Positions 17,035-45,736 of a stretch of DNA of 64,000 bases are shown here, piece after piece; within the stretch, counting starts at the first letter, position 1; each line of letters begins with the position of its first letter. Source of the DNA: Candidatus Magasanikiibacteriota bacterium (GTDB lineage Bacteria > Patescibacteriota > Patescibacteriia > Magasanikbacterales > UBA922). The DNA lies in assembly GCA_016193335.1 (NCBI GenBank), contig JACPSK010000001.1:111926-175925 (forward strand). Reading direction: 5' to 3'. Made by a program: the position numbers and the translations under genes. Below the pieces are notes generated by a model. That model did no database searches, had not been told where the DNA came from, and was given only the letters and a program-made list of their open reading frames with translations.

Positions 17035-17070
17035 AAAATGATAAATTGTAAATTAAAAATTCTGATGTTG

Positions 17071-25393: not shown

Positions 25394-27517
25394 TTAAAAT
25401 AATGGAATAATCCGGTACGGAATGAGCAAATTCTGTCCAAAAGGCCACCAGTCGGCGAGTTTTCGCGATCGTCTGTCCCAGACACGAAGAGGCTGAGACC
25501 CGTCAAGCGCGCTTACCAACACATCGTCAGATCCGTCGTTGTCGTAATCGAGAACACTGGCTTGGATTCCAGCCCTGTAAACAGGATCATAGGCAGTGAA
25601 TTTTCGTTTTAATGATCCGTCCCGGTAATAATAGCTGAGTGTCGGATCTTGATCCGGCCCTGAACCTACTATATACTCGGCCCTTCCATCACCATCTATA
25701 TCACCGGCGACCACAGTGCCACCAAGAGCATAAGCCGGAAGTTCTATACTCTGTTGAATATCATATTGTGTTTCTGAAACCCTGTATTCTTCGAGAAGGG
25801 GTACTCCCTCATACTGATATAATACCACAATATGTTTTTTCCCTTGGGCTCCGAAATCCTCATACGCATTGTCGATAAGTGATAAAGAAACACCATGATG
25901 TTTGGATATTTCTTTTTTTTCAGCAATGAGTTCTCCGGAAATTGAATAGACTGAAAATATACTCTGCTCCGAAGTGGCAGGATATAAAATAATTTCTACC
26001 TCGTCACTCCCCAGCAGGTCACCCACCGCGACTCGAAGCGGACCTTGAGAAGGAACTTCCCATCTGTACAACACATGCCAACGCTGATCATAGATAGTTA
26101 GCTCTCTGGCATCTTGATTTTTTTTACGAGCTATAACGTTTCGTCGCTCTTGATTTGAAACCTGATAAGAAACAAAATCATCACTATCCACGAGCCCCAA
26201 GCGTACAAAAGAATTTAAATTGCCCGTGGCAATATCTTGCAAAACGACTTTGCCTGTTTTGGGGTCAAAAACCATTAGATCCTTGCGAAGCGAGACGATT
26301 TTCTCCAATACTTGAGTTTTTTCAACAGGGACTGTTTCGATTTTTCCGTCTGAAAGGTCTTCTGTACCTTGGTCCAAAGCATACTGTACCGCCTTGCCAA
26401 CCTGTACCAAGCCCGATCCAAAAAGATGAGCGTATATAGCTTCATCTTGGCCGGGAGTATGGTGCACGGTCTTTAAAATGGCATCATAAATTTGATCAGG
26501 CGTCCAAGAAGGCTGAACACTTTTGATAAGAGCGGCTGTCCCGGAAATGAAAGGAGCCGCGAATGAAGTACCCTGCCAATCTGTAGAATATCGCTGATTC
26601 AGGCCATTTTTAGGAGAATAACGTATAGTGGAACCGAGAGAGACTCCCGGAGCTGTGATATCTATGCACTGCGACCCATAATTAGAAAACTGGGCGATGC
26701 GCCGCTCTTTATCTATAGCACTCACACCGAGCACCAGCTCCTCGCTTTCTGTACTGTCTGAACAAATCGGATAATAAGGCAGCGTATTCAAATCACGAGA
26801 ATCATTGCCCGCGGCCGCAATCATGAGCACTCCCTTTGCGTGAGCATAGAGAACAGCCTTTCTCAAATCCGGTTCTTCATACGTGCCAACCATGCTGACA
26901 TTTATAATATTTGCTCCATTGTCCACCGCGTAATAAATGGCCTCTGGCAGACTGAGCAAGCTTCCCACGCCGGTATTGTCTATCACTTTGATATTCATCA
27001 AACGAACATTCCAGTTTAAACCAGCGCCGTCTTTGCCATTATCTCCTCGCGCGCCTATAATGCCGGCGACTATGGTCCCATGATTGAATATGCCTTCTTT
27101 TTTTTCTTCTGAAGACAACATGGATACCGTGGGCCTTGGTTCCTTATTCCCTTTAATTTCACCAGCATCTACCAGGCCATCTCCATTAAAATCTTCCTGA
27201 ACAAAATTCCAACCCCAGACATCGTCTATATAGCCGTTTGCATCGTCGTCCACTCCATTGTCCGGAATTTCATCATCATTTTTCCATACATTATCCCGCA
27301 GATCCGGATGAAAAGTATCAAAACCATTGTCTATCACAGCCACAACCACGTCTTTGGATCCTGTGGAAATGTCCCAGGCAGAATAAACACCAGCATCTTC
27401 ATAAGCCCACTGATAAACATAAGGGTCATCGCTCATTTTCGCTTGAGCCGATTCCGCGTATCCAAAAAAGCGAGCCGCGAGTAAACAAAAAAATAAAACG
27501 AAACCCTGTTTTCTCAT
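25394..27517 (-). CDS. Secreted S8 (subtilisin-like) serine peptidase with C-terminal repeat/FG-GAP-like domain
   Basis: Signal peptide MRKQGFVLFFCLLAARFFGYAESAQA. Catalytic triad contexts VAVIDNG (D), HGTIVAG (H), GTSFAAPFISG (S). C-terminal VAGDIDGDGRAEYIV repeats. Confidence 0.85.
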   Translation of the reverse strand: MRKQGFVLFFCLLAARFFGYAESAQAKMSDDPYVYQWAYEDAGVYSAWDISTGSKDVVVAVIDNGFDTFHPDLRDNVWKNDDEIPDNGVDDDANGYIDDVWGWNFVQEDFNGDGLVDAGEIKGNKEPRPTVSMLSSEEKKEGIFNHGTIVAGIIGARGDNGKDGAGLNWNVRLMNIKVIDNTGVGSLLSLPEAIYYAVDNGANIINVSMVGTYEEPDLRKAVLYAHAKGVLMIAAAGNDSRDLNTLPYYPICSDSTESEELVLGVSAIDKERRIAQFSNYGSQCIDITAPGVSLGSTIRYSPKNGLNQRYSTDWQGTSFAAPFISGTAALIKSVQPSWTPDQIYDAILKTVHHTPGQDEAIYAHLFGSGLVQVGKAVQYALDQGTEDLSDGKIETVPVEKTQVLEKIVSLRKDLMVFDPKTGKVVLQDIATGNLNSFVRLGLVDSDDFVSYQVSNQERRNVIARKKNQDARELTIYDQRWHVLYRWEVPSQGPLRVAVGDLLGSDEVEIILYPATSEQSIFSVYSISGELIAEKKEISKHHGVSLSLIDNAYEDFGAQGKKHIVVLYQYEGVPLLEEYRVSETQYDIQQSIELPAYALGGTVVAGDIDGDGRAEYIVGSGPDQDPTLSYYYRDGSLKRKFTAYDPVYRAGIQASVLDYDNDGSDDVLVSALDGSQPLRVWDRRSRKLADWWPFGQNLLIPYRIIPLF

Positions 27518-27620: not shown

Positions 27621-29012
27621 ATGAAATTTCCTTACCGACTGAAACAGCTGATACTGCTCCTCGGAGACTTGTTCAGTTATTCTTTTGGATTCTGGCTCGG
27701 TCTGGCAATAAGAAATTTCTCCATCCCAAGCGCCGTGACGCTCGAGGCTCATGTGAATCTGGCACTGGGTCTTTTTGTTCTATGGATCCTCATAAATTAC
27801 ATAAACGGGCTCTACGACCTGGCCTCGACATACGAGGGGAAAGGATACAAACGCATAAGTGAGGCGGGGCTGAGCGCCTTGATAGTAAGCGTGGTGCTCC
27901 TCTACCTCTTGCCCCAAACTCGGCTCACTCCGAAAACGATTTTGGTTTTGGGTATCAGTTTTGGCTATCTTATCAGCACCTGTTGGCGTTTGGGCTTCAA
28001 CAGGCTTATTGGGAATAAAAAACTTTCCACCCGCATTTTATTTGTAGGTTACAGCGAGGATACTCAAGAGCTCATGGATATTATAGAAAGACATCCTGAG
28101 AAAGGATATGAAGTGGTGGCGATCTGTGATCCTGAAAATGGAACTCAGGCGCATAAACTCAAAACAAGAGCAGCCGTATACCGGAGTCTAAAAGCCTTGA
28201 GGCCTGCCATATCTACCCACAAAATACAGTTGATCGTGGCCGCGCCCAATCTTCGCGACACAGAAGAAACTCTGAGAGAACTCTATGAACTTTTGTTTTG
28301 GCCGGTGAGTATCATAGACTATTCAAAACTCTATGAAAATGTAACCGGACGCATATCCCCGGTCATCTTTTCTGAAAATTGGTTTTTGGCGAATCTAACC
28401 AACCATGAAAATCATATATACAACAAAAGCAGGCGGGTGGCCGATTACCTCGTTTCTTTCATCATTGGACTTTTGATGATTGTTCTGTTTCCTCTCATTG
28501 CGATGCTTATTAAACTGAATTCAAAGGGTCCTGTGTTCTTTAAACAAAAAAGAGTGGGGCAATTCGGCCGGATTTTTACCATGTATAAATTTAGGACCAT
28601 GTACGCTCTTGCTCCTGACGGCAGTGCCGAGGAATCCGGAGCTCAATTTGCCAAAAAAGGCGATAAAAGAATTACTGCCATAGGAAAAATACTCAGAAAG
28701 ATGAGGATTGACGAATTACCGCAATGCATCAATTTATTCCGAGGCGATCTTAGCCTCATCGGCCCCAGGCCCGAACGGCCTGAAATCGTGGAAAAACTGG
28801 AAGCAAAAATGCCCTATTACCCGCTCCGACATATTGTAAAACCGGGAATCACCGGCTGGGCCGCCATACACCAGCATTACACCGACACCATGGAGACCTC
28901 GCTCCAAAAACTTCAATACGATTTATTTTACATAAAAAACAGGTCCTTCCTTTTGGACCTGATCATACTGCTCAGAACCGTTAACGTGGTGATACGAATG
29001 ATGGGACAATAA
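27621..29012 (+). CDS. Undecaprenyl-phosphate hexose-1-phosphate transferase (WbaP/CpsE-type bacterial sugar transferase)
   Basis: 463 aa. Four N-terminal TMs, then the C-terminal Bac_transf domain KQKRVGQFGRIFTMYKFRTM...IDELPQCINLFRGDLSLIGPRPERPE. Confidence 0.85.
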   Translation: MKFPYRLKQLILLLGDLFSYSFGFWLGLAIRNFSIPSAVTLEAHVNLALGLFVLWILINYINGLYDLASTYEGKGYKRISEAGLSALIVSVVLLYLLPQTRLTPKTILVLGISFGYLISTCWRLGFNRLIGNKKLSTRILFVGYSEDTQELMDIIERHPEKGYEVVAICDPENGTQAHKLKTRAAVYRSLKALRPAISTHKIQLIVAAPNLRDTEETLRELYELLFWPVSIIDYSKLYENVTGRISPVIFSENWFLANLTNHENHIYNKSRRVADYLVSFIIGLLMIVLFPLIAMLIKLNSKGPVFFKQKRVGQFGRIFTMYKFRTMYALAPDGSAEESGAQFAKKGDKRITAIGKILRKMRIDELPQCINLFRGDLSLIGPRPERPEIVEKLEAKMPYYPLRHIVKPGITGWAAIHQHYTDTMETSLQKLQYDLFYIKNRSFLLDLIILLRTVNVVIRMMGQ

Positions 29013-29076: not shown

Positions 29077-29997
29077 TCAAAGATCACTTAAACCCCATTC
29101 TTTCTTTAATTGGGCAATCCCCTCTGCAAGTGATATGGTAGGCTCCCAGCCAAGCAATCGCTTGGCTTTTGTATGGTCAGCTCTTGAATAACGCACATCC
29201 CCGAGCCGTTCGGGAATTTGCACGGTTTCTCCTCCAATCATCTCGGCAACCTGATTTACCGAGTATGGCTGGCCATTGCCGATATTAATAAGTTCCCCTT
29301 TCCCTACTTTATCGCTCAGCATGGCTTTGATGTTCGCTTCCACCACATCTTTGACCTGAGTATAATCACGATAGTACTCACCGTCTCCGCAAATGCTCAA
29401 GGCCTCGCCTCTTGATCTCTGCAACAAAAATTTACCTACCACCAAAGCGTAAGCGCCCTCAGGGTCCATATGCGGTCCGTAAACATTAAAATAACACAGG
29501 GAGACTGTTTCCAATCCGTACAGACTGGAAAATAAGCGGCAGTATTCAGTGCCCGTAAGTTTTTGCAAGGCATAAGGACTCTGCGGATCTTTTGGCATGT
29601 CTTCAGTTAAGGCGATCTCGCCCTTATTGCCTCCGTATATGGAAGAAGAGGTGCTAAAGACCACGCGAAGCGATCCGGCCTCACGAGCCGCGGTCAACAC
29701 ATTCAAAGTGCCATTTATATTGCTGTCATTCGTTTCCAAAGGATGCTCTACAGAATAAGGAACTCGGGGAACCGCCGCAAGATGAAAAACACCATCAGTT
29801 CCTGAAACCGCTTTTTTTACATCTTCCAAATTGCGAATATCCGCCTCTCGATATTCTGCTTTGTCATAAAAACGTTCTTGTTTTTTGCCTCCGCTGTAAT
29901 TGTCTATAACCCGAACATAGTGGCCATCGTTCAAGAGACGCTTTACAAGATTTGAGCCTATGAATCCGGCCCCGCCGCTTACCAGATAAAATGACAT
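29077..29997 (-). CDS. NAD-dependent epimerase/dehydratase (UDP-sugar 4-epimerase-like)
   Basis: MSFYLVSGGAGFIGSNLV, YALQK (YxxxK). Start taken at ATG 29997 three codons inside the TTG-initiated track ORF. Confidence 0.8.
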   Translation of the reverse strand: MSFYLVSGGAGFIGSNLVKRLLNDGHYVRVIDNYSGGKKQERFYDKAEYREADIRNLEDVKKAVSGTDGVFHLAAVPRVPYSVEHPLETNDSNINGTLNVLTAAREAGSLRVVFSTSSSIYGGNKGEIALTEDMPKDPQSPYALQKLTGTEYCRLFSSLYGLETVSLCYFNVYGPHMDPEGAYALVVGKFLLQRSRGEALSICGDGEYYRDYTQVKDVVEANIKAMLSDKVGKGELINIGNGQPYSVNQVAEMIGGETVQIPERLGDVRYSRADHTKAKRLLGWEPTISLAEGIAQLKKEWGLSDL

Positions 29998-30007
29998 ACT
30001 TTGCAAA

Positions 30008-30160
30008 TTTTTAATTTATGATTTTAATTTTTAAACAATTTTTAATGATACAATATAATCATGACCTTAGATGGTGCTGATCTCTGAAATGTGTGTGGGA
30101 CGCTTGGCAAATTGGAAATTAATAATTTCAAATTGTTTATAAATTAAAAACTAAAAATTT
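30008..30160 (+). repeat. MITE-like AT-rich intergenic repeat element, copy B
   Basis: tttttaaacaattt (30028-30041) / aaattgtttataaa (30130-30143) and tail ttaaaaactaaaaattt. Same length and ends as copy A, with a diverged core sharing attggaaatt and taatgat blocks. Confidence 0.6.
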
Positions 30161-30164
30161 TGTA

Positions 30165-31550
30165 TCAATGTTTTGCCTTGATAAATGGAGACCCCACAGC
30201 TACGATATCAAAGCCCGCCTCTTGCAATTCTTTATAGCGATGCTGGAGCATCCTGCGGCCATCCATGATAAGAGGTCTTTTCTCAAGACCAGAAACCACG
30301 TCTGCCAAGCCCCTGAATTGAGGCCAGTCTGTGGCAATAATAATGAGGTCCGCGTCTTTTATAGCTTCATACTCATGCTGTACATAAACCACCTGCTCTG
30401 AAGCCGGAAACTCTACACTAAACATAGGCAAAGCGGCCGGATCATATACTTGAACGGTTTTGATATTTCTTTCCAGCACAAAATTCATAATTTCTATGCT
30501 TGGAGAATTGCGTATATCATTGGTGTCCCTTTTGAAAGCCGCGCCAACCAAAGCAATAGTCTTATCTGCCCAATTGAACTGAGCCTCTCGTTCGGCTCTT
30601 CCCATAAAACGCTCAAGTTGGCGCTTATTGGCAAGATAAGTTTCATTGACCAACTCTGCGTTCGCTCCGGCCGTCTGCAGCTGATGCGCCAAGGATCGAG
30701 CATCTTTTATAAAACAACTCCCGCCCGCGTACAAACTGTCGTAAAATCCCCAGCTGCTGATTCGTTTGTCAGAGATCAAAATTTTTCGTATATGTTCAAA
30801 TTTGACGCCGTCAAAAGCTTCGCAGGTTCTGCCTATTACATCAAAACAGACGCTGAGCTTATTGAACAAATAAAAATTGGCGAGGAGCTTGCCCGCGGCC
30901 GCTTCTTTTGGGTTCACTTCGATATAACTCACATCCGGCGCGTCGTAAAAACGCTGATACAAAATCCGCATCGCCGCGAAATCTTTTTCATCCCAGGCTC
31001 CAACTACGATGCGGTCCGGTTTTAGAGAGCCGGCTATGGCTTTGCCTTCCACCAAAAATTCCGGGTTTGAAACAGTCCCATAATTTTTGACACCGGCTTC
31101 GTCCATTATTTTTTTTGTGTGATCAACCATTTCTACCGGCACAGTGCTTTTGTTTACCAATACCACATAGTGAGTTTGCGCTCCCCGGTTTCGTTTTGCC
31201 AAAGCTCCAGCCAACTGAAGAGCGGCTTTGTTGTAATAGGCCAAATCGCTTTCTCCGGTCTGATCTATTTCAGGAGTTGGAAGACACATAAATACTGCGT
31301 CACAATCATTGAGAAAAGACCCCACTTCGGCGTATGTTGAGGTAAAACGTATTCGGTCTTTATGACGGATCAACAGTTCTGCCAGTCCTTCTTCGAAAAG
31401 GCATTGTTCTATGAGTTCTCTGTCCCCTGAGCCGAGCTTGGAAATCTTCTGTTCGTCTATGTCAAAAACAAGGACATTGTGGCCGCTATCGGCAGACACA
31501 GCGGCTGAGCAAGAGCCCACAAAACCGGCGCCTATATAGAGGATGTTCAT
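30165..31550 (-). CDS. Nucleotide-sugar 6-dehydrogenase (UDP-glucose/UDP-GlcNAc 6-dehydrogenase, WbpA/Ugd family)
   Basis: MNILYIGAGFVGS N-terminal Rossmann fold; catalytic GGSCFIKDARSL (Cys nucleophile motif); 461 aa. Confidence 0.85.
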   Translation of the reverse strand: MNILYIGAGFVGSCSAAVSADSGHNVLVFDIDEQKISKLGSGDRELIEQCLFEEGLAELLIRHKDRIRFTSTYAEVGSFLNDCDAVFMCLPTPEIDQTGESDLAYYNKAALQLAGALAKRNRGAQTHYVVLVNKSTVPVEMVDHTKKIMDEAGVKNYGTVSNPEFLVEGKAIAGSLKPDRIVVGAWDEKDFAAMRILYQRFYDAPDVSYIEVNPKEAAAGKLLANFYLFNKLSVCFDVIGRTCEAFDGVKFEHIRKILISDKRISSWGFYDSLYAGGSCFIKDARSLAHQLQTAGANAELVNETYLANKRQLERFMGRAEREAQFNWADKTIALVGAAFKRDTNDIRNSPSIEIMNFVLERNIKTVQVYDPAALPMFSVEFPASEQVVYVQHEYEAIKDADLIIIATDWPQFRGLADVVSGLEKRPLIMDGRRMLQHRYKELQEAGFDIVAVGSPFIKAKH

Positions 31551-31646
31551 AATAAAATACCTTTTTAATTCATATCTACCTACTGTAGGGTACTACAAAC
31601 AAAAAATCAATTCAAGGCTTGAAAAGGGTAAAAACACAGAAATGAC

Positions 31647-31676
31647 ATTGACAAAATGACATTTTTTTGCTAAAAA
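31647..31676 (+). promoter_or_regulatory. Host-type sigma-70 promoter TTGACA-17-TAAAAA upstream of the high-GC ORF
   Basis: atTGACAaaatgacatttttttgcTAAAAAt with the direct repeat aatgacatt x2. SD GAGGAATGAGGAA lies 4 nt before ATG 31729. Confidence 0.45.
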
Positions 31677-31728
31677 TGGCTCTAACAGCCAAGAAAGGCT
31701 CAGACCAGAAAACGAGGAATGAGGAATC

Positions 31729-32637
31729 ATGAATCAAAGCGCTGAGTACGCCGCGGCCATGGCGCGGAGCTATCTTGTAACCGAAGGGCCGATCATCATC
31801 GGCCGCGGAGCATTGAAGAGCACTGTCATTTTGGAGAGAGGCTGGCAGCCGCATGGCATCACGATCCGTCGCACTTTGGCCGGAGAGGCCGATGTGCTCC
31901 TCATGGCTTCCTACTTCCACCCGTCGATCTTGCGTTTGCTGATCTCGCGAAGCGAGAACGGCGATTTGCTCCTGGATCCCGAGTGGATCCGCGGCGCCTA
32001 CTTTGGTGGCAAGCGGCTTCGGGTCTTTCCGGGCAAGCCCTCATTCTCAGACATGCCCCGGGCCCAGACCGCGGTGCATGTGGAGGGCGGCTTCCTCGCA
32101 AGCAGGAATGGCGAGCGGCTCTTTTGGCGCTTTCACAAGAATGCTGAAGGAAGCTGGGCGCTAGACACTGTTGTGGAGAAGGCCTTCCGGCTGCCTGGAA
32201 ACAGACGAACCGCGGTCTACTCGGCCCTGGCAACGCCCGGCTATTTCTATACAGTGGAAGCCAACAGGGCTCTCACCGAACGGTTCTGGCTGCTGCGATG
32301 CTACGAGCACCTCGAGGGTTCGAGGTTCCGCTGCGTTGCAGAACACCGGATTCCGGAGTTCGTATACGGCGTGGCTATGAGGCCAGGCGACAGTACCGGT
32401 CTCTGGCTGATTACCGACTACCGCTGCAGCGGCTGGACCCACGGCGTCTGGCGAGTGGAACTCGGCGTTCCGGGTTCTGAGCGCCTCATGGCCGACGGCT
32501 ATTGGGGCACTGGAATCGGATTCCTGAGCGACAAAACCTTGGTCCTGGCCCGCTACGGCGAATCGCACCCAGATCCGCTTGGCGGAATCCCGGGCGCCCT
32601 GGTCTTTGTGCCGGCAAACATGGTCGGCGAACCATAG
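31729..32637 (+). CDS. Hypothetical protein encoded on a ~62% GC island (probable horizontally acquired gene), function unknown
   Basis: 302 aa. Strongly GC3-biased codons (GCC GCG GCC ATG GCG CGG AGC...) against a ~43% GC background. The composition changes exactly at the ATG and decays ~190 nt after the stop. No recognisable catalytic motif; Trp/Arg-rich. Confidence 0.6.
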   Translation: MNQSAEYAAAMARSYLVTEGPIIIGRGALKSTVILERGWQPHGITIRRTLAGEADVLLMASYFHPSILRLLISRSENGDLLLDPEWIRGAYFGGKRLRVFPGKPSFSDMPRAQTAVHVEGGFLASRNGERLFWRFHKNAEGSWALDTVVEKAFRLPGNRRTAVYSALATPGYFYTVEANRALTERFWLLRCYEHLEGSRFRCVAEHRIPEFVYGVAMRPGDSTGLWLITDYRCSGWTHGVWRVELGVPGSERLMADGYWGTGIGFLSDKTLVLARYGESHPDPLGGIPGALVFVPANMVGEP

Positions 32638-32929
32638 AAATTCCTGTCCCGACTTGGTCGGGACAAACCCAGGTCTTAGTGACCTGCGGCACGACGGCCG
32701 AGGACCGTCGCTTCACCGCTACTTCGAAGACATTCGGGCTAGCGGCGAGGCAGTTAGGCTCTTTAACAAAGGAAGGCTGTGGTGGACAAGATCAAGCAGG
32801 TTCTTGGATTTGCTTTCATGGCGGCGGTCTCTAGCCTTGGTATGATAGTGGGTGGGGGCCGAATATTTTAGGTCTAGTATTTTGGGTTTCTGTATTACAA
32901 TCACATGAATGTTTAGACTGATAATCTGG

Positions 32930-34195
32930 TCATAAATGCCAATCTTTCAAAGTTTCCCTCTGCGAAAAAACTTTTCTCAAAGCCTCTATGAACAAGTCTA
33001 TATGTTCTTTTTTGACCGGGTATCGGCACATAGCGGTAAAAACCAAAGTTTCATAAAAACAACGCTCAGCGACCGGACAAAGACCTTTTACATAAGAATC
33101 TTTTTTTAGATAAGACCAATACCGATAGGTGGAGTTATCCTGGAAAAAATTAAGCAAATATACGGGCTTGGTGTAGCCTCCAGACAAAGCAAAACCTTCT
33201 GCTTTCATGGCCTGTATAAACAGATCCCGAGAAATACCTATCATTGAAGCATCATATAAAAAAGGATATACATAATATACATGCTTCGAATCCGACATTT
33301 CTTCGAAAGCTTTGATAAACGGAAATTGCCGCAAAGCCTGAGTAAGATAATGAACCAAATCTATTCTATGTTGGTTCAAAGCATCCATTTTTTTTAATTG
33401 CTCCCGAGCTATGGCGGCATGAAGCTCTGTCATCCGATAATTACTGCCGACAACAGGGATATCGTGCATATTGAGATCATCCACAACATTTTCTCCATGA
33501 TTCCTTTTCAGTCTAGCTCGAAACGCATAGTCCTCGTTATTGGTTACCAAGACTCCACCCTCGCCGCACTGAACAGTTTTGTGAACATTAAAACTGAAAA
33601 TTCCCATGTCTCCCATAGTGCCGGTGTAAGCGCCATGGTAGAGAGCGCCCGGAGCTTGGGCGTTGTCTTCTATTACTTTAAGATTATGTTCTCGAGCAAT
33701 AGATAAAATCTTTTGATAATCCGCCGGACCCCCAAAAAGATTTACCGCCATCACTGCTTTTGTTTTGGGGCTTATGGCTGCTCGGAGCAAATCTGGATCC
33801 ATGCAAAAATTATGTTCATCAATATCAACAAATACAGGCACGAGATTGTGCAGAATGATAGAAGTGACCGTGGCAGTCATGGTAAAAGGAGGCACGATAA
33901 CCTCTGAGCCAGGTTCCAATTCAAGAGCGGTCACGGCAGCCTCGAGCGCGGTGGTGGCCGAATTAAAGGAAACCGCGTAGGCGCTGCCAAATTTTTGTAT
34001 AAAGGATTCTTCAAGAGCTTTTACTTCTCTGCCGCCCAAAAAATAATCTCCCGCTCGCCCTACGAAATCAGAAAGTACGCCAGAGTCCATTACGCGAAGC
34101 ACAGCCTCCCGTTCATTCTGGTCGTAAGTATTGGCAGGAGGCAAAGACCCCTCAAACACTGGTTTTCCTCCGAGTAAAGCTAGTTTTTCTTCCAT
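32930..34195 (-). CDS. DegT/DnrJ/EryC1/StrS-family PLP-dependent sugar aminotransferase (WbpE-like)
   Basis: 421 aa. NVHKTVQCGEGG (PLP lysine context); full-length DegT architecture. Confidence 0.85.
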   Translation of the reverse strand: MEEKLALLGGKPVFEGSLPPANTYDQNEREAVLRVMDSGVLSDFVGRAGDYFLGGREVKALEESFIQKFGSAYAVSFNSATTALEAAVTALELEPGSEVIVPPFTMTATVTSIILHNLVPVFVDIDEHNFCMDPDLLRAAISPKTKAVMAVNLFGGPADYQKILSIAREHNLKVIEDNAQAPGALYHGAYTGTMGDMGIFSFNVHKTVQCGEGGVLVTNNEDYAFRARLKRNHGENVVDDLNMHDIPVVGSNYRMTELHAAIAREQLKKMDALNQHRIDLVHYLTQALRQFPFIKAFEEMSDSKHVYYVYPFLYDASMIGISRDLFIQAMKAEGFALSGGYTKPVYLLNFFQDNSTYRYWSYLKKDSYVKGLCPVAERCFYETLVFTAMCRYPVKKEHIDLFIEALRKVFSQRETLKDWHL

Positions 34196-35217
34196 AGACT
34201 GGCGTCTCCTATTCCGGAATTTAATATTATATTCTCATTTTCAAGAGGAAAAGTTACTCTATTGCCTTGTCCGGCTGAACTCCATAAGCCTGATATCATT
34301 TCCAAAGATGACAAAGCGCTTCGAACAGAAGATTTCGGTTCTATTCCTGTTTTTACGCATTTCAAAAGATCGTCAAGAGCATTACTCATATACGAGCGGG
34401 AAAAATCATCAGGTATAGGGCGTTCTTCTTTTCTTGAGACAAACGAAATGTTGAGATATTGGCTCTCTTCGGCTTTGAAATAGCGATAATCATACGCGCC
34501 AAAGGGTTTGTTGATAGTGTCAAGGCGGGCTTTTGTTCCAAATATATTGAACTCAAGCATCGGGTACTTCTTTCCATCCATGGGCACCAGATGAGCTATC
34601 ATGCCATTTTCATACTCAGCTTGCCCAAAAATTTCATTTTTTAAAGTCCGGGCAGATACTGCCTTGCAATCACCAAACCAGTAAGACAAGAGGTCGCAGA
34701 CATGTGATCCATTAGTAACTAAACCGCCGCTGTAATACACCGTAACAGCTTGGATTTCACCAAGCAGATCATTCATATGATCCTTCAGATATGTATAAAA
34801 CGGATCATATCTTCTTATAAAATTAACGAGCACCGGAATATGCTTTTTGGCAGAACGTCTTTCTATATCCCGCGCCTGGGCAAGAGACAGAGTAACGGGT
34901 TTCTCGCACCAGATGCCTTTTATAAAATCGCATGAAAGTACTTCGCACAGTATATCGTAATGGGTCTCATCAGGTGTGCAGATACTGACGATATCTGGAC
35001 TTTCTTTACGCAACAAGGCCATATACGAAGCGGCAATGGAAAAATTATGGTTTTTTTTGAGCTTGAGAAGAAGCTCCGGATCAGACTCAGAAATTCCCAC
35101 AAGTTCGAGTTCTGAATTTTGCATGTATGCTTCGAAATGGGTTGTCGGGAATCCAACTCCATAGTTCTGAAAGCCATAGCCTATATTACCAGCCCCGATA
35201 ATAAGTCCTTTGTACAT
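34180..35217 (-). CDS. Gfo/Idh/MocA-family NAD(P)-dependent oxidoreductase (WbpB-like)
   Basis: Start at MYKGLIIGAGNIGYG; Rossmann fold plus CEKP motif. Confidence 0.8.
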   Translation of the reverse strand: MYKGLIIGAGNIGYGFQNYGVGFPTTHFEAYMQNSELELVGISESDPELLLKLKKNHNFSIAASYMALLRKESPDIVSICTPDETHYDILCEVLSCDFIKGIWCEKPVTLSLAQARDIERRSAKKHIPVLVNFIRRYDPFYTYLKDHMNDLLGEIQAVTVYYSGGLVTNGSHVCDLLSYWFGDCKAVSARTLKNEIFGQAEYENGMIAHLVPMDGKKYPMLEFNIFGTKARLDTINKPFGAYDYRYFKAEESQYLNISFVSRKEERPIPDDFSRSYMSNALDDLLKCVKTGIEPKSSVRSALSSLEMISGLWSSAGQGNRVTFPLENENIILNSGIGDASLWKKN

Positions 35218-36589: not shown

Positions 36590-38106
36590 ACCTCTAAGGC
36601 TTTATGTAAACGTTTGTATACGCGCAAGGCGTTTGTTTTGTATATCTTCTCCAAAATATCTTCATCCAAGTTTGAACTCACTATTTTGCCGATAGACCAG
36701 GCCGGAGTCATAAGCGGACCATCGGCCGCATATAAAACCCGATCAGCGCCAAGCTCTTTTATCACCTTTGCCACGTCACTTTCACCGCGATGGGCATAGC
36801 TCGCGCTTATATCGACAACCAAATTTTCGATGCCTTTAAACTCGGGCATACGATCCGCCGTTATATGCGCAATAACAAACTGAACTTTTGGAAAAGCCCG
36901 AGCGGCTCCTGCCGCTCCCGTTTTGTGAGCCAAAATCGGCCAATCATGTTCTTCGGCCCAGCGCAGCATGGGGAGATATCGTTCATCATCAAGACCGGCC
37001 GGATAATAGTCTTGAATGGTTTTAATTCCCACGAAAGAAGGATTATTTTTGTATTTTTCCAATTCCTCCAAAGATTCCTCAACTCGTGTGGGGTCATAAA
37101 CAAGATAGCCAAAAATCCTTGGATCTTGTCGAGTTAATTCATTGGTGTTCGCGTTCCCCTGGCTCATATCATAATTAAGCGCCAATATGGAAGAAGATAT
37201 GACTGCTTCATAATGAAAATCGTCCAATACCTTCTTGAGCGAAGCCGCGTCAGTCTTTGGTTCGATTATATCCCAGCCTTCAGCGTGCCAATGTGTGTCT
37301 ATCTTCGGCCGTTCAATATGATCGAAGCCATATACATTTTTGTCTTCGGCAGACTCTGTTGAAGTATTCTCTGCCACTGAAAAAATACCGGCCAGTGTTC
37401 CATAAGATATCTGTTCCTTGTCTTTAACAGAAAGTTCGGCTGTATCCACCAGAAAATGGCCGCAGGACTCGTATACCACCGGCATATTGCTGGCGAGATA
37501 CAGTCTCTCGGTTCCGATTTTCTCTGCGAGATAAGCGACTCCGCCGAGTTGGACCAGATTACTGACATCAAAATAAATATGCGGCATGAGACTCGCTATG
37601 GTAATAACATCGGCCGTGTTGAGATATCCCCCTCCCCTCACCCATCTGATGAGAACCGGCGTTTTAAGCTCAGCCACCGCGTCCGCCGTCTCGGACAAAT
37701 CATCAAGGCTCGCAATAGCGATTTGTATGGGAAGTCCGGCTTTTGAAATTCGTTTCACCAATGCGCGGAATGTGTAATGCGTGCTCTTCCAAAATTGATA
37801 ATGAAGAAAAAAACTTACGCCGCGGAAACCCTGCCCAGCCAACGTTTCGATATAGTCCGATCCAATATCATAGTGCTGAGGATTGATTACTGCCATGGGC
37901 AGGCATCTGTTTGGATACAGACGAGAAAGTTCCAGTGTTTTGCGGTTGCCCTCGTACATATCAAAAAAAATGGCCTCAAGATTTGTGCTTAGACCCATAC
38001 GCGTGTTTGTCCTATCCATCATGGAAAGTACGCGTTCATTACTAAACTCAAGACCGTACTTCGGCTCCCTGCCAAAAAAAACACCGCCGTCAAAACGCTG
38101 TATCAT
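36586..38106 (-). CDS. Tandem amidohydrolase-2 (TIM-barrel metal-dependent hydrolase) domains; the N-terminal copy is degenerate
   Basis: C-terminal half: IDTHWH (HxH), VIAHIT, AADGP. N-terminal half has the same topology (ends LYLASNMPVV) but lacks HxH. Start at MIQRF gives an ATGA overlap with the upstream gene. Confidence 0.6.
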   Translation of the reverse strand: MIQRFDGGVFFGREPKYGLEFSNERVLSMMDRTNTRMGLSTNLEAIFFDMYEGNRKTLELSRLYPNRCLPMAVINPQHYDIGSDYIETLAGQGFRGVSFFLHYQFWKSTHYTFRALVKRISKAGLPIQIAIASLDDLSETADAVAELKTPVLIRWVRGGGYLNTADVITIASLMPHIYFDVSNLVQLGGVAYLAEKIGTERLYLASNMPVVYESCGHFLVDTAELSVKDKEQISYGTLAGIFSVAENTSTESAEDKNVYGFDHIERPKIDTHWHAEGWDIIEPKTDAASLKKVLDDFHYEAVISSSILALNYDMSQGNANTNELTRQDPRIFGYLVYDPTRVEESLEELEKYKNNPSFVGIKTIQDYYPAGLDDERYLPMLRWAEEHDWPILAHKTGAAGAARAFPKVQFVIAHITADRMPEFKGIENLVVDISASYAHRGESDVAKVIKELGADRVLYAADGPLMTPAWSIGKIVSSNLDEDILEKIYKTNALRVYKRLHKALEV

Positions 38107-39260
38107 AGACGTTTGTCCCAAATATTATCCTTTACCCATTGACCATATTCATTTTTCACCCATACGCGAGGATCTCTAAAACGATCACAAATTTTTTCGA
38201 ATTCTGAGCGAGGCATATCCACCATATCGAGCCAGGCTCCGATATCTCCCGGGACGACATGATCATAATTTCTAACCATTTCAATGCCCTGGTCTCGGGT
38301 GAGTATACCATTTCGTATATCGCGGCACGCGTGGTCCGTTGCTCTGCCATAACCGAATTTTATATACTTCAAATAATCGTGAACGCCGTTATCGTGAATA
38401 TCATTGAGATTGGAATCATTTCGATAGGTTCGGTCAAAAGGCTTGTCATAAAATTCAAATCCATACAAATCAACCATCAGTTTGGTATGTTCATGCTGTT
38501 TCCACCCGAAATAGTTTGAAATAAAAAGACCGCGCAACCCCACCCGTTCTATTTCTTCATCACTCGGATACTTGGCCCACAAAAGATCTTTTTCGCTCAA
38601 TCCAGTATCTTCTCCCACAAAATCGTACCAATCATAGCCTCTAAGGCTATGCTCTTTCCTGTATTTGGCGGTAAACTCCACCAAATCGTTGTATGAATGC
38701 ATGCCTCCCATGTTCATGAATCCGTGTTCTCCCCAGATGATAAGCGGAATATTGTACTTTACCGCGACGATAATGGGAGTCGTAAACATGCCGCAATGGC
38801 AATGCCAATTGGGATCACCCATTTTCATGAATCCGGCAAGATTGAGTTTTTTCAAAACACTGACGCTGGGAGTAAATTCAATGTAATCCACATCAAAAAC
38901 TTCTTTCATGCGCTGGATATTGCGCATGCCGACTGCGGTATGATTATTCTCACGATACGTAACCAAAAGCGGTTTCAGTCCGTATTCTTTGGTTATAATA
39001 TGGGTTTGATAAAAACTGTCTTTCCCGCCGCTCACCGGTATAACGCAATCATAACGGGATCCGTCTTTTGATCTCAGCTCTTGTACAAGGTCCCCAAACA
39101 ATTTTTTTCTCTTATCCCAGTCAACAGATTCTTGTTCGTCGTATGTTCTGCAGCCAGTACAGACGCCATTTGTATCAAAAGTAAGTGGAGTAGCGGCAAC
39201 ACCAGGATAGACGCATCTGGCGCAGTATTGCATTTTCGGAGGATTGATCATAGATATCAA
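38103..39260 (-). CDS. pseA: N-acetyl sugar amidotransferase (PseA/WbpG/WbuX family PP-loop ATPase)
   Basis: 385 aa. N-terminal Cys-rich Zn ribbon CARCVYPGVAATPLTFDTNGVCTGC; PP-loop SGGKDS; immediately upstream of the HisF- and HisH-like partner genes (WbuZ/WbuY arrangement). Confidence 0.8.
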   Translation of the reverse strand: MISMINPPKMQYCARCVYPGVAATPLTFDTNGVCTGCRTYDEQESVDWDKRKKLFGDLVQELRSKDGSRYDCVIPVSGGKDSFYQTHIITKEYGLKPLLVTYRENNHTAVGMRNIQRMKEVFDVDYIEFTPSVSVLKKLNLAGFMKMGDPNWHCHCGMFTTPIIVAVKYNIPLIIWGEHGFMNMGGMHSYNDLVEFTAKYRKEHSLRGYDWYDFVGEDTGLSEKDLLWAKYPSDEEIERVGLRGLFISNYFGWKQHEHTKLMVDLYGFEFYDKPFDRTYRNDSNLNDIHDNGVHDYLKYIKFGYGRATDHACRDIRNGILTRDQGIEMVRNYDHVVPGDIGAWLDMVDMPRSEFEKICDRFRDPRVWVKNEYGQWVKDNIWDKRL

Positions 39261-43223: not shown

Positions 43224-44216
43224 TCAAAATCCAGGTGTATCCAAAGCAAGCCGCAGGGCATTCTCATTCGAAACATGTATAATCTCTTCAAAGGGGAGAG
43301 AACAAGATTTTTTGGCTGAAGGGACACAACTGAGGACCGGCTTATCAGCCAGTACCGCAACCACCAAGGCCATACTTTCCATGCCCACTATTATATCTGA
43401 ACACAGAACTTCGGCAACAATATTCGGTTCATCAGAATATTCAATGGAAAACGAAGGTTTCCACAAAGAAATAAGCGAATGATAGGACTCTGGATTGTCG
43501 GCCGGATGAAGTCTCACCACGATTCGCCGCTCCCTTTTTGGTATGCTTGCAGATACGGCTCTGCAGAGTATGTCGAATACATCCGATTCTGTGTAACCCC
43601 AATGTCCGGGATCTCCAAACATACGCTCGGCTCCGAGGGATACTGGTTCTGAAATAAACAAAATGGTCTGTCTTCTATTACCTGGGCCATGTTCAGCTCT
43701 CATGTTCAGGCGGTAGCGTTTAATTTCCTCGCGCATTTCCTCAAAATATTGATTCGGAACCAAACGAAGCAACGGAAAATTATCCTTTTTTGCTTGTGCA
43801 TAGGCGTACTTGTCTCCTACCCATATCTCATCTGGCATGCGGGTCTTCCATTCGAGAGCAGGATATCCAAACCGCTCTTTATAATTAACCCAATGATCGA
43901 GATAACTTGCGGTCCGGATTCCTTTGTTACGCGCCATGATAATGGCCCGTCTTTCGAGATCCGTAGTCCAGCTTGTGCCGGTGAGGACCATATCATATGT
44001 TAGTTTCGAATCCGAAAAGCAAGCTTCGAGCGAGGTTTCTGTTGGCAGGCAGAGGTAATTCAATCCTTTTTTTTGAAAAATGTTCACGGCAGGACCGGAC
44101 ACAAAACAGGAAAATACATAATGATCCTTATTTTTTTTTACATAAGCAGAAAGGATCTCCGCGCCTCCCGCATCATGACAGACAAGCAAAACAGCCGATC
44201 CCGGTTTGATATTCAT
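43224..44216 (-). CDS. Hypothetical protein, possibly a GT-B-fold nucleotide-sugar hydrolase/2-epimerase (PseG/NeuC-like), uncertain
   Basis: Start at MNIKPGSAVLLVCHDAGGAEILSAYVKK (ATGA overlap with wzx). The N-terminus resembles the NeuC/epimerase-type start (ICVVTGTRAEYGLL pattern). Position between pseB and wzx fits the missing PseG step. Weak evidence. Confidence 0.35.
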   Translation of the reverse strand: MNIKPGSAVLLVCHDAGGAEILSAYVKKNKDHYVFSCFVSGPAVNIFQKKGLNYLCLPTETSLEACFSDSKLTYDMVLTGTSWTTDLERRAIIMARNKGIRTASYLDHWVNYKERFGYPALEWKTRMPDEIWVGDKYAYAQAKKDNFPLLRLVPNQYFEEMREEIKRYRLNMRAEHGPGNRRQTILFISEPVSLGAERMFGDPGHWGYTESDVFDILCRAVSASIPKRERRIVVRLHPADNPESYHSLISLWKPSFSIEYSDEPNIVAEVLCSDIIVGMESMALVVAVLADKPVLSCVPSAKKSCSLPFEEIIHVSNENALRLALDTPGF

Positions 44217-45736
44217 ACAGCATCCTGTTTTATTTTCAGTTCGCCATAAATCGAACGCAAAGTAAACCAAGGACCAGATCCCATTTTTTTACTGACAAAC
44301 AAAGCGACAAAAACATACCAAATCCCCAAAAAGATCGCCCAGACAAAAATCATGCTATTGCTAAAATGCGCGTGAGCATATCCGTGAACGCTCAGAGCCA
44401 GGATGAAGGTGCTCAAAGAAGCAACCCCTGTGCTCAATATGATTGGTTTGAATCTATAGACTGCGATACGCAGAATTGGTTTAGCCTGAAAAATGACAAA
44501 AAGACACAGGACGAACCAAGCCAAAGACATTGCCAGAGCGGCGCCAATGAGATCTCGCCACAAAATGCCGAAATACACAAAAATCGAAGACAAAAAAAGC
44601 TGCAGAAAACTGATTTTTACATTGGTGCCGGGACGGCCTATGGCGTTCAAAAGCGGTTTGACCATAGTAACCAAGCCTAAAAACACATTACCAGCCGCAA
44701 GTATTTTCAAAGGCAGAACCATAGAAAGCCAGCCTCTGCCCAGAAGCACAGAGACGATAGATCCTCCTTCAAACACCAAAAGTAAACTGAACGGTATGCT
44801 CACCATAAAAAAAACATCCAAGCTTTTCAAAAAGCCTTCCTGAACTTTTCCGAGTTCGTCTTGTATTTTGGCGTAAGCTGAAAAGGCGACTTTGTTCATG
44901 ATAGACAAAATCGGCCAAGAAATAGTAGTGGGCAAATCTCTGGCTCGTGAATATAACCCCAACTTGTTGGTATTGAGCAAACGACCGACGAGAATGGTGT
45001 CTACCGTGCTGACGAGATATTCGAGAATGGTATGAATGTATATCCATTTTCCATATCCAAAAAGATCTTTTAAAAGCCTGAATCTAAAATCAAGACGAGG
45101 TATATTAGGATACAGCACATAACTCATGATACCGCCCGTGATATAACGCCCTACATACCCAAAAAATAAAGCCCAGGCACTCGTGCTTATCAAGAGCGCC
45201 CAGGCAACCGCGCTTATGACATATACAATTTGGCCCACTGAATCTCTCAAGAATACTTTTTTGAAATCTAAATCTTTAAAAAAATAAATCTGTTTGTTGT
45301 TCGATAAGGACGCTATCACCACAAATAAACCGCTCAAACGGATGATGAGTTCGTGGTTCTGACTCACATGAAAAAAATCACTTATGAAACCTCCGCCAAA
45401 AAAAATAATAATCGCTATCACGAATGATTTCAACAAATCATAGGTCCAAACGACATCGAGATATTTCTCCACAGAGCCTTGTCTTTGAAGCAAAGCGGTT
45501 CCAAACCCCGGATGCGAGAAACGATCCATAAAGCTGGTGACCGTGAAAACCACGGTTATCACCCCATAATCCTCAGGCAGAAGTATACGGGCGAGTATAA
45601 GGAAAGGAATTATGTTGATTGCTTTTTGAAAAATGGTTCCCAAAATAAACCACTTGCCGCCTTGAACCGATTTGTGATAAACGCCTTGTTCTGGTTTTTG
45701 TTTTCTTTCATCCATACTAAAAATGGCTTTCTCCAA
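44213..45736 (-). CDS. wzx: Oligosaccharide flippase (Wzx, MOP/polysaccharide-biosynthesis superfamily)
   Basis: 507 aa, ~12-14 TM helices, Polysacc_synt-like N-terminal region ILGTIFQKAINIIPFLILARILLPEDYGV. Confidence 0.75.
   Translation of the reverse strand: MEKAIFSMDERKQKPEQGVYHKSVQGGKWFILGTIFQKAINIIPFLILARILLPEDYGVITVVFTVTSFMDRFSHPGFGTALLQRQGSVEKYLDVVWTYDLLKSFVIAIIIFFGGGFISDFFHVSQNHELIIRLSGLFVVIASLSNNKQIYFFKDLDFKKVFLRDSVGQIVYVISAVAWALLISTSAWALFFGYVGRYITGGIMSYVLYPNIPRLDFRFRLLKDLFGYGKWIYIHTILEYLVSTVDTILVGRLLNTNKLGLYSRARDLPTTISWPILSIMNKVAFSAYAKIQDELGKVQEGFLKSLDVFFMVSIPFSLLLVFEGGSIVSVLLGRGWLSMVLPLKILAAGNVFLGLVTMVKPLLNAIGRPGTNVKISFLQLFLSSIFVYFGILWRDLIGAALAMSLAWFVLCLFVIFQAKPILRIAVYRFKPIILSTGVASLSTFILALSVHGYAHAHFSNSMIFVWAIFLGIWYVFVALFVSKKMGSGPWFTLRSIYGELKIKQDAV

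Follow-up and report, generated by a model that had tools for sequence, protein, structure and literature searches.

A GC-rich beta-propeller gene in a glycan locus of a Magasanikbacteria genome whose composition looks maintained rather than recently acquired

The DNA analysed here, referred to as the window, is a stretch of 64,000 nucleotides from a Candidatus Magasanikiibacteriota bacterium (contig JACPSK010000001.1, positions 111,926 to 175,925). It contains a plus-strand gene of high GC content, called the propeller gene after the predicted fold of its product, and the origin of this composition is the subject of the present work. The sequence-only reading had placed the gene between a WbpA-like dehydrogenase and an aminotransferase of a glycan locus, and Pfam searches confirmed these neighbours as an Ugd and a DegT enzyme (Table 1). 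They lie in a supercluster whose sugar genes encode GT4, GT2, epimerases, GFO, two formyltransferases, GNATs, Amidohydro_2, HisF/HisH-like proteins and a methyltransferase. CTP_transf_3, a PseB-like dehydratase, a flippase, PIG-L, NeuB, a PseC-like DegT and an S8/FG-GAP protein were also found there.

Table 1. Features at and around the propeller gene (positions in the window)
Feature	Position	Strand	Remarks
Glycan / nonulosonic-acid supercluster	21729-52171	-	Pfam calls
Bac_transf in supercluster	27621-29012	+	Pfam
UDP-sugar 6-dehydrogenase (Ugd/WbpA-like)	30165-31550	-	Pfam PF03721, PF00984, PF03720; divergent neighbour, syntenic anchor
AT-rich divergent intergenic region, Ugd (-) / propeller (+)	31551-31728		178 bp; GC 0.32-0.36 over the 200 nt preceding ATG
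Candidate sigma-70-like promoter	31648-31677	+	TTGACA, 17-18 nt spacer, TAAAAAT; TG two bases 5' of -10; 10/12 consensus score
Tandem Shine-Dalgarno-like GAGGAA-T-GAGGAA (GAGGAATGAGGAA)	31714-31726	+	Read from sequence, ahead of ATG 31729
Propeller coding sequence	31729-32637	+	909 bp, 302 aa; N-terminal helix and beta-propeller read as five-bladed; family without Pfam model
Putative 3' tail, GC-rich, structured, non-coding	32638-32835	+	198 bp, 56% GC
Perfect 9-bp GC-rich hairpin, extendable to 11 pairs	32645-32653 / 32657-32665		Inverted repeat I21; starts 8 nt past stop
DegT-type aminotransferase	32930-34195	-	Pfam PF01041, E = 3.9e-86; convergent neighbour, last gene of upstream minus-strand sugar operon

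The promoters of both divergent genes presumably sit in the intergenic region. By pattern match, a candidate promoter of the propeller gene consists of TTGACA at 31648-31653, a 17-nt spacer and TAAAAA(T) at 31671-31677. The hexamers, the spacing and the AT-rich, host-like character were as described in the sequence-only reading, whose coordinate was off by one base, and the AT-rich, host-like Shine-Dalgarno sequence noted there was found as a tandem element. A direct repeat of AAATGACATT, present twice 14 nt apart (31640-31663, D13), flanks the -35 hexamer, and a perfect 10-nt inverted match, CAAAATGACA / TGTCATTTTG, joins the promoter region to codons 32-35 (31824-31833, I13); these could reflect an operator, 5' pairing or chance. 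On the minus strand, the hairpin TGGCT gttag AGCCA followed by TTTTT (31677-31691) lies between the propeller start and Ugd, and could stop antisense transcripts ahead of Ugd, its 5-bp stem being weak.

Downstream of the stop codon, the perfect 9-bp hairpin lacked a T-run on the plus strand, as had been described, and was followed by a weak T-run on the minus strand; a terminator-like scan flagged the minus strand only. The segment 32630-32850 was predicted to fold at -92.5 kcal/mol, with z of -4.65 (plus strand) and -4.52 (minus strand) against dinucleotide shuffles. The tail showed no similarity to the family profile in any frame, and an Rfam scan of 30000-35000 gave no match at E up to 1. 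A remnant of a second propeller copy, or of the EamA gene that follows the homologue in locus L029 (see below), was rejected for want of significant similarity. The tail was treated as the putative structured 3' untranslated region (UTR) of the gene.

Inspection of GC content in 200-nt windows gave 0.37-0.43 over 31500-31799 and 0.58-0.65 across 31700-32699; 3' of the open reading frame (ORF) it fell to 0.57, then 0.50, then 0.40 by 32800-32999. The previously described jump at ATG 31729 and decay after the stop were thus reproduced, the gene and ~200 bp of 3' flank forming a 61% GC island in a 44% GC window. The GC content of the ORF was 0.613, compared with 0.440 ± 0.024 for 909-nt windows outside the island across the 64 kb, and no other such window exceeded 0.524. 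GC at the first, second and third codon positions (GC1, GC2, GC3) was 0.61, 0.50 and 0.73, and the ORF's own frame was the only one of six open over the region, which demonstrated a real coding frame rather than a by-product of high GC. The strong GC3 bias also claimed before was borne out, as the mean GC3 of the 48 other window ORFs of at least 150 aa was 0.44 (sd 0.043, max 0.536; z = 6.6). The protein was Arg-rich, as had been remarked, with 28 Arg against 6 Lys, and contained 3% Trp.

The exact protein was encoded on 11 contigs, nine of which were retrieved: one contig of an NCBI metagenome-assembled genome (MAG; GCA_964404105.1) and eight Logan assemblies of different runs, namely seven of SRR121133xx/121134xx and SRR4343435, which belongs to a different Sequence Read Archive (SRA) accession series. 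All nine (L001-L009; L numbers denote retrieved loci) included the island together with flanking host sequence on at least one side, were 99.4-100% identical to the window and left both junctions unbroken. The SRR4343435 strain (L004) differed from the window by 12 mismatches and a 13-bp insertion, all within 29227-30180 and none in the island; these differences were confined to the epimerase gene and the epimerase-Ugd spacer. Likewise, all 25 differences between L056 and L035, two copies of another family locus, fell in the 5' part of Ugd (L056:7250-7750). Such clustering of strain differences beside the gene looks like recombination tracts.

The gene had been regarded as an orphan, an impression explained by the fact that a word-indexed search of 5.8 billion proteins returned only one relative, at 34% identity, besides the self-match, which was annotated as hypothetical and assigned to a Candidatus Magasanikbacteria MAG. 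A HMMER profile built from two sequences was scanned against 1.84 billion representatives of clusters at 50% identity. It was found that 117 proteins matched at E ≤ 1e-3, 98 at E ≤ 1e-10 and 53 at E ≤ 1e-30; most were 270-320 aa long and matched end to end, and the orphan status could therefore not be upheld. The closest relative of the window protein was ~35% identical. The source names on members were Candidatus Magasanikbacteria and Candidatus Falkowbacteria only, both of the Candidate Phyla Radiation (CPR), and one member bore the UniRef label "SMP-30/Gluconolactonase/LRE-like region domain-containing". Searches of the window protein against Pfam, NCBIfam, PHROGs, PADLOC and PDB sequences gave nothing usable, Pfam on 72 members gave only faint NHL/propeller-repeat matches and no SGL match at E up to 1, and a profile search of the PDB produced no match with E under 0.01. 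The family is uncharacterised and has no Pfam model. Its near-invariant residues (Q40, P41, Y62, P65, R98, F100, R111, W143, Y192, G214, G239, G260, G262, G269, G289 and P295) were all retained in the window protein, and its conserved motifs were QPxGI, YFxP, WIR, RNxxR, TDxR, GNGI.FLSDG, RYG and PGAL. No second copy, whether a paralogue or a possible source of conversion, was seen at any family locus retrieved, and a scan of IMG/VR viral contigs found no phage-borne relative.

An AlphaFold2 model made with a 72-sequence alignment reached a predicted local distance difference test score (pLDDT) of 94.4 and a predicted template modelling (TM) score of 0.92, superseding a model from a two-sequence alignment (pLDDT 54). 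The model comprised an N-terminal helix followed by 23 strands. Grouped from the secondary-structure string, these suggest five four-stranded blades, the last closed by an N-terminal strand, so the earlier guess of a beta-rich or repetitive protein was right: the predicted fold is a beta-propeller. In structural comparison the list included the YjiK C-terminal domain (3qqz, score 17.7), bacterial glutaminyl cyclase (3mbr, 16.7), glycoside hydrolase family 43 (GH43) enzymes (about 14-16) and SMP30/NHL six-bladed propellers (13-14). Identity to these matches was 6-13%, and Foldseek TM was ≤0.50 on query length; in the model, the fold class is known and has no close solved relative.

YjiK (SdiA-regulated domain, 3qqz) and the glutaminyl cyclases (3mbr, 3nok) share with the model the fold of small five-bladed beta-propellers. 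However, identity to them was only 10-11%, no Pfam or NCBIfam model of theirs matched (72 members, Pfam), and the extra N-terminal helix and conserved motifs of the window family were not attributable to them. To our knowledge, YjiK itself has no established function. The SMP-30/gluconolactonase/LRE-like family, which we take to be Pfam PF08450, and the NHL propellers (4gn7, 7plb, 3dr2, 5d9b) have six blades, in contrast to the five suggested here; no family member reached the Pfam threshold, and the likeness is at the generic propeller level. For GH43, a five-bladed propeller family, neither a profile match nor the catalytic Asp/Glu/Asp triad was found. By inspection, the N-terminus has no hydrophobic signal-like stretch, suggesting a cytoplasmic protein.

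DNA was retrieved for ~20 distinct family loci, and neighbouring genes were labelled by precomputed Pfam hits or BLAST to labelled genes. About 15 of the 20 lay in nonulosonic-acid or glycan clusters, which carried NeuB, CTP_transf_3, formyltransferase, GNAT, Amidohydro_2, HisF/HisH-like amidotransferase, DegT and epimerases; clusters of the NeuB, CTP_transf_3, formyltransferase, GNAT and HisFH-like type were present at L029, L030, L031, L034, L039 (= L053), L045, L054 and L057. In seven loci (L031, L037, L038, L047, L051, L054, L057), the gene directly adjoined CTP_transf_3, the CMP-sugar synthetase. The exceptions were L052, in a Falkowbacteria mur/cell-wall cluster, and L010 and L055, among housekeeping genes. 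Members of the family recur as accessory genes in loci for glycans and for nonulosonic acids, which are sialic-acid-like sugars. By guilt-by-association this speaks strongly for a part in the synthesis or modification of a nonulosonic acid, although the role itself is read from gene context. An acidic or nucleotide-activated sugar would be a fitting ligand for the many conserved arginines, and the protein may bind or modify an acidic sugar intermediate or its CMP-activated form. Literature on CPR nonulosonic acids, on the GC content of Magasanikbacteria and on the maintenance of GC-rich genes was searched and yielded nothing specific.

A layout with epimerase and Ugd on the minus strand and the propeller gene beside them on the plus strand was shared by the window, L035 (= L056), L029 and L030. 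L029 is a second Candidatus Magasanikbacteria MAG, and L030 and L035 were linked to it and to the window by synteny and by Ugd identity of 64-84%. The Ugd proteins were 64-67% identical among the window, L035 and L029/L030, and 84% identical between L029 and L030. In L035 the divergent genes were separated by an AT-rich spacer of 166 bp. In L029 and L030 an inserted AbiEi/AbiEii pair separates the propeller gene from Ugd; the toxin gene, encoding the AbiEii nucleotidyltransferase, and the small partner upstream of it were located at L029:8420-9794, L030:1489-2905 and, in another sugar locus, L057:2325-3700.

It was found that the composition of the gene was anomalous in these diverged homologues as well. 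GC content of the gene was 63%, 64% and 52% in L029, L030 and L035, against backgrounds of 42%, 40% and 31%, respectively. GC3 of the gene compared with its neighbours was 0.85 vs 0.44 in L029, 0.88 vs 0.38 in L030 and 0.63 vs 0.23 in L035 (= L056), and 0.73 vs 0.43-0.44 in the window. Contrasts were also observed in L034 (0.76 vs 0.53), L045 (0.81 vs 0.56), L039 (0.61 vs 0.42), L042 (0.55 vs 0.42) and L057 (0.49 vs 0.38). The GC-rich block began at the start codon in every lineage checked and persisted 100-200 nt past the stop in most, boundaries which match those of a transcript minus its 5' leader. In L029, the propeller gene is followed on its own strand by an EamA-type transporter gene (L029:11105-12043), which was also GC-elevated (54% GC, GC3 0.60-0.62 vs 0.44 for the locus), implying that the GC-rich block there spans two genes.

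The time over which the composition has persisted was gauged from the composition-corrected excess identity at four-fold sites of conserved residues, on small samples of 45-141 sites. For both Ugd and the propeller gene, comparisons among the window, L035 and L029/L030 gave an excess of -0.05 to 0.10. This is the chance level, which indicated that synonymous sites are saturated in the deep pairs. Between L029 and L030, Ugd had an excess of 0.37 [0.25-0.49] and the propeller gene one of 0.36 [0.21-0.51]; these closely similar values indicated that the two genes diverged together. A two-state relaxation model was then applied, with a per-lineage retention of sqrt(0.37) = 0.61 and with host GC at four-fold sites (GC4) taken over all neighbours. 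Host GC4 was 0.56 for L029 and 0.51 for L030, and propeller GC4 was 0.81 and 0.88, respectively. The ancestral GC4 required for neutral decay was calculated to be 0.97 for L029 and 1.12 for L030 (1.04 at the upper confidence bound). Because a value above 1 is impossible, neutral decay was rejected for L030. At the deeper splits, where retention is ~0.3 or less, the GC4 excesses of +0.2 to +0.35 are likewise unattainable if descent was vertical. The propeller gene is under purifying selection yet fast-evolving, with nonsynonymous divergence (pN) between L029 and L030 of 0.26 vs 0.08 for Ugd.

We consider the best explanation, with a probability of roughly 0.6, to be that the propeller gene has long resided in the sugar locus as an intact, single-copy accessory gene and that its GC-rich composition is actively maintained. 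The high GC looks like a stable, gene-specific composition at a shifted G/C equilibrium and not like the fading trace of a recent transfer, since the syntenic homologues in low-GC genomes are equally or more GC-rich despite complete synonymous turnover. A further and more tentative proposition, which we would not quite back at even odds, concerns a fixation bias specific to this gene. It would have kept a single transcript (coding sequence and 3' UTR) 15-25 GC points richer than the surrounding genome, in several low-GC genomes related through this locus, while synonymous sites turned over completely. Such a bias may track host drift (GC3 of L035 0.63 vs 0.23; L029 0.85 vs 0.44) and is possibly tied to the lone orientation of the gene.

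The nature of the bias was characterised as follows. Codons ending in G or C were increased in 18 of 18 degenerate amino-acid families, both in the window gene and in its L029/L030 homologues, and this uniform shift ruled out translational codon adaptation to tRNAs. At third positions in the window gene, C (0.42) exceeded G (0.31). The summed fraction of Gly, Ala, Arg and Pro was 0.35, vs 0.24 in host genes; when the protein was given host codon usage its gene would have 51.8% GC compared with the 61.3% observed, so that about half of the GC excess resides in the protein and about half is synonymous. The third-position logit offset from the neighbouring genes was 1.0-2.5 in six high-contrast loci, amounting to up to +0.50 in GC3, and the mean offset was 1.11 in loci with the gene on the opposite strand vs 0.27 in same-strand loci (Mann-Whitney p = 0.014).

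The GC skew of the plus strand was negative throughout the window, from which this strand is probably the lagging one and the propeller gene head-on to replication. GC3 over the whole window was 0.487 for the eight plus-strand genes vs 0.433 for the 40 minus-strand genes. A replication-strand effect was rejected, as it amounted to only +0.05 GC3 for plus-strand genes of the window. An overlapping antisense gene was also rejected: no conserved open frame was found, the best antisense frame containing 1-7 stops across homologues. A particular selected mRNA structure found no support in synonymous-codon shuffles, which failed to separate propeller from control genes.

In the proposed mechanism, the propeller gene would be driven by its own AT-rich promoter, divergent from Ugd and convergent with the sugar operon upstream. 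The GC content would most likely be maintained by selection for base composition across the whole transcript, coding sequence and 3' UTR together, and the benefit might be a stable, structured mRNA for a lone gene facing an operon. This cause is preferred because the block follows transcript boundaries, because every codon family and the non-coding tail are affected, and because the effect is strongest in genes facing the operon. GC-biased repair at a recombination-prone spot would be the second choice, short tracts having been found beside the gene in two strain pairs.

Several observations weigh against maintained composition in a long-resident gene. The GC contrast was small or absent in L031, L036, L038, L051, L052, L054 and L055; members native to 60% GC genomes exist (L051, L054), and a GC-rich source is conceivable. 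Identity of the propeller proteins was 54-62% within the group of L029, L030 and L035; to the window copy it was only 32-36%, where 54-57% would be expected, since L035 is 54-57% identical to L029/L030 at the same ~65% Ugd distance. A neighbour-joining tree of 22 sequences put the window copy outside the GC-rich clade. Vertical descent of this long-branch outlier is thus uncertain, and at the deep nodes vertical descent is something we infer. The amelioration case for L029 was borderline (0.97), with 95-141 sites and a simple two-state decay model. The link to orientation was weak, its p value being uncorrected for phylogeny and L045 being a same-strand exception, and the shuffles gave z of -3.6, -4.3, -1.2 and -0.6 for four propeller genes vs -3.2, -1.6 and -0.35 for controls. 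Finally, L010 and L055 lie outside glycan clusters, and the suggested biochemical role is read from gene neighbourhood and conserved residues.

Some of these points bear on an alternative that we regard as unlikely, namely an old transfer or repeated replacement from a GC-rich pool by recombination through the conserved flanks, in the window lineage as well, caught before amelioration. Such a pool might be represented by the host-matched members at 52-61% GC (L051, L054, L055, L036), and replacement would account for a window copy that is more divergent than its flanks predict and branches separately in the tree. The short recombination tracts beside the gene (window/L004 at 29227-30180; L056/L035 in 5' Ugd), the extension of GC-richness into non-coding 3' DNA, as in a transferred fragment, and the AbiE toxin-antitoxin genes beside the gene in L029, L030 and L057 also fit. 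However, the propeller gene and Ugd of L029/L030 co-diverged, yet GC3 is still 0.85-0.88, which is above that of every copy in a compositionally matched host (max 0.77). In addition, no close homologue in a composition-matched donor was found among ~15 billion proteins, the nearest being ~35% identical; the GC jump lies exactly at the start codon in every lineage checked, preceded by AT-rich, host-like promoters; and the gene keeps the same position and orientation beside Ugd in four lineages.

The sequence-only reading had favoured a recent, unameliorated transfer of a single gene from a high-GC donor, fused to host expression signals. The strong composition contrast within ~1.1 kb, the high-GC-type amino-acid use (28 Arg vs 6 Lys) and the lack of a close relative in the word-indexed search were in keeping with it. 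It had been stated beforehand that sister genomes of this lineage with homologues of equal GC would speak against such an event, and exactly such homologues were found in L029, L030 and L035, with saturated synonymous sites. The 99.4% identical strain from a different SRA series carried the island without differences. No donor-like sequence, mobility gene, adjacent tRNA gene or meaningful border repeat was found: repeats at the island borders were 9-17 nt long, a size expected by chance, the adjacent genes encode sugar enzymes, and the nearest tRNA genes, at 17070 and 18362 only, are 13 kb away. As for the usual marks of a genomic island, the composition was atypical of the host (61% vs 44% GC, GC3 z = 6.6), and the gene was not absent from the homologous position in relatives, the closest comparison being at ~66% Ugd identity, that is, at deep distance. 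A recent transfer is therefore quite improbable. A scan of GTDB representatives with Ugd for a sister genome with an empty site gave a closest match of 56%, in a Gammaproteobacteria MAG (L011). In the same representatives no near-identical match to the window Ugd was present, so that the window's own genome is apparently not among them.

A chimeric assembly, or a structured RNA or other non-coding element misread as a gene, would fit the abrupt composition change and the unusually well-folding 3' tail, but can be dismissed as most improbable, because nine assemblies of different runs, including the NCBI MAG, share the same junctions, the family is conserved at the protein level with a confidently predicted fold, and neither an Rfam match (E up to 1) nor a conserved open antisense frame was found.

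Glycan loci are hot-spots of exchange, and acquired surface-polysaccharide genes are typically AT-richer than the host. The window gene shares with a classical acquired genomic islet the sharp, gene-sized departure in GC and codon use inside a glycan locus. In contrast to such an islet, however, its anomaly is common to syntenic diverged homologues, outlasts synonymous saturation and lacks mobility features, and the gene is GC-richer than its host. In bacterial genes, G/C-favouring selection or biased gene conversion has reportedly been described, by Hildebrand et al. in 2010, by Raghavan, Kelkar and Ochman in 2012 and by Lassalle et al. in 2015. The maintained composition proposed here would share with these processes a synonymous fixation bias to G/C against AT-biased mutation, in all codon families; but the reported effects are genome-wide or regional and modest, whereas here one transcript shows a large offset (1.0-2.5 logit).

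The analysis defines a protein family of at least 117 clusters at 50% identity with a confidently predicted propeller fold, which forms an unstudied part of sialic-acid-like sugar loci. CPR surface chemistry is thought to be relevant to host attachment and is nearly unexplored. The gene is also a counter-example to reading gene-sized GC and codon islands as recent transfers: amelioration has not operated here, as the anomaly is common to syntenic homologues with saturated synonymous sites. If the island is indeed maintained, it would undercut the routine use of GC or codon anomalies as evidence for recent acquisition and would suggest that mRNA or DNA composition is under selection in a way not recognised so far. 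If a gene-specific GC force were confirmed, the locus would offer a natural system for studying selection or biased conversion, with lineages of 31-44% GC as replicates.

A conserved element of ~110 nt was observed directly 3' of the propeller stop codon at L030:3982-4100, L035:5412-5530 (= L056:8865-8983) and L029:10913-11020. It starts with TTTCTCCTGCC, 12-15 nt past the stop, ends ahead of a bidirectional intrinsic terminator, and has been kept although the four-fold sites of the L029/L030/L035 lineages are saturated. One hairpin showed compensatory changes (GAGGG/CCCTC, GAAGG/CCTTC, GAGAG/CTCTC), and 5 of 16 predicted pairs covary. A scan of the L030 gene region gave no convincing Rfam match to the element, and matches to its covariance model were confined to the L029/L030/L035 clade, with none in the window.

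Elsewhere in the supercluster, a 707-aa subtilase (Peptidase_S8) fused to FG-GAP repeats is encoded at 25394-27517 (-) and, with 46% identity, at L029:1145-3160. This fusion is a conserved glycan-locus member in both Magasanikbacteria MAGs, where its association with sugar genes is unusual. Two proteins of 350-385 aa without a Pfam match are encoded in the nonulosonic-acid cluster at 38103-39260 (-) and 43224-44270 (-). The former, labelled unk376, adjoins the Amidohydro_2 and HisF/HisH-like genes and is 76% identical to its counterpart in L034.

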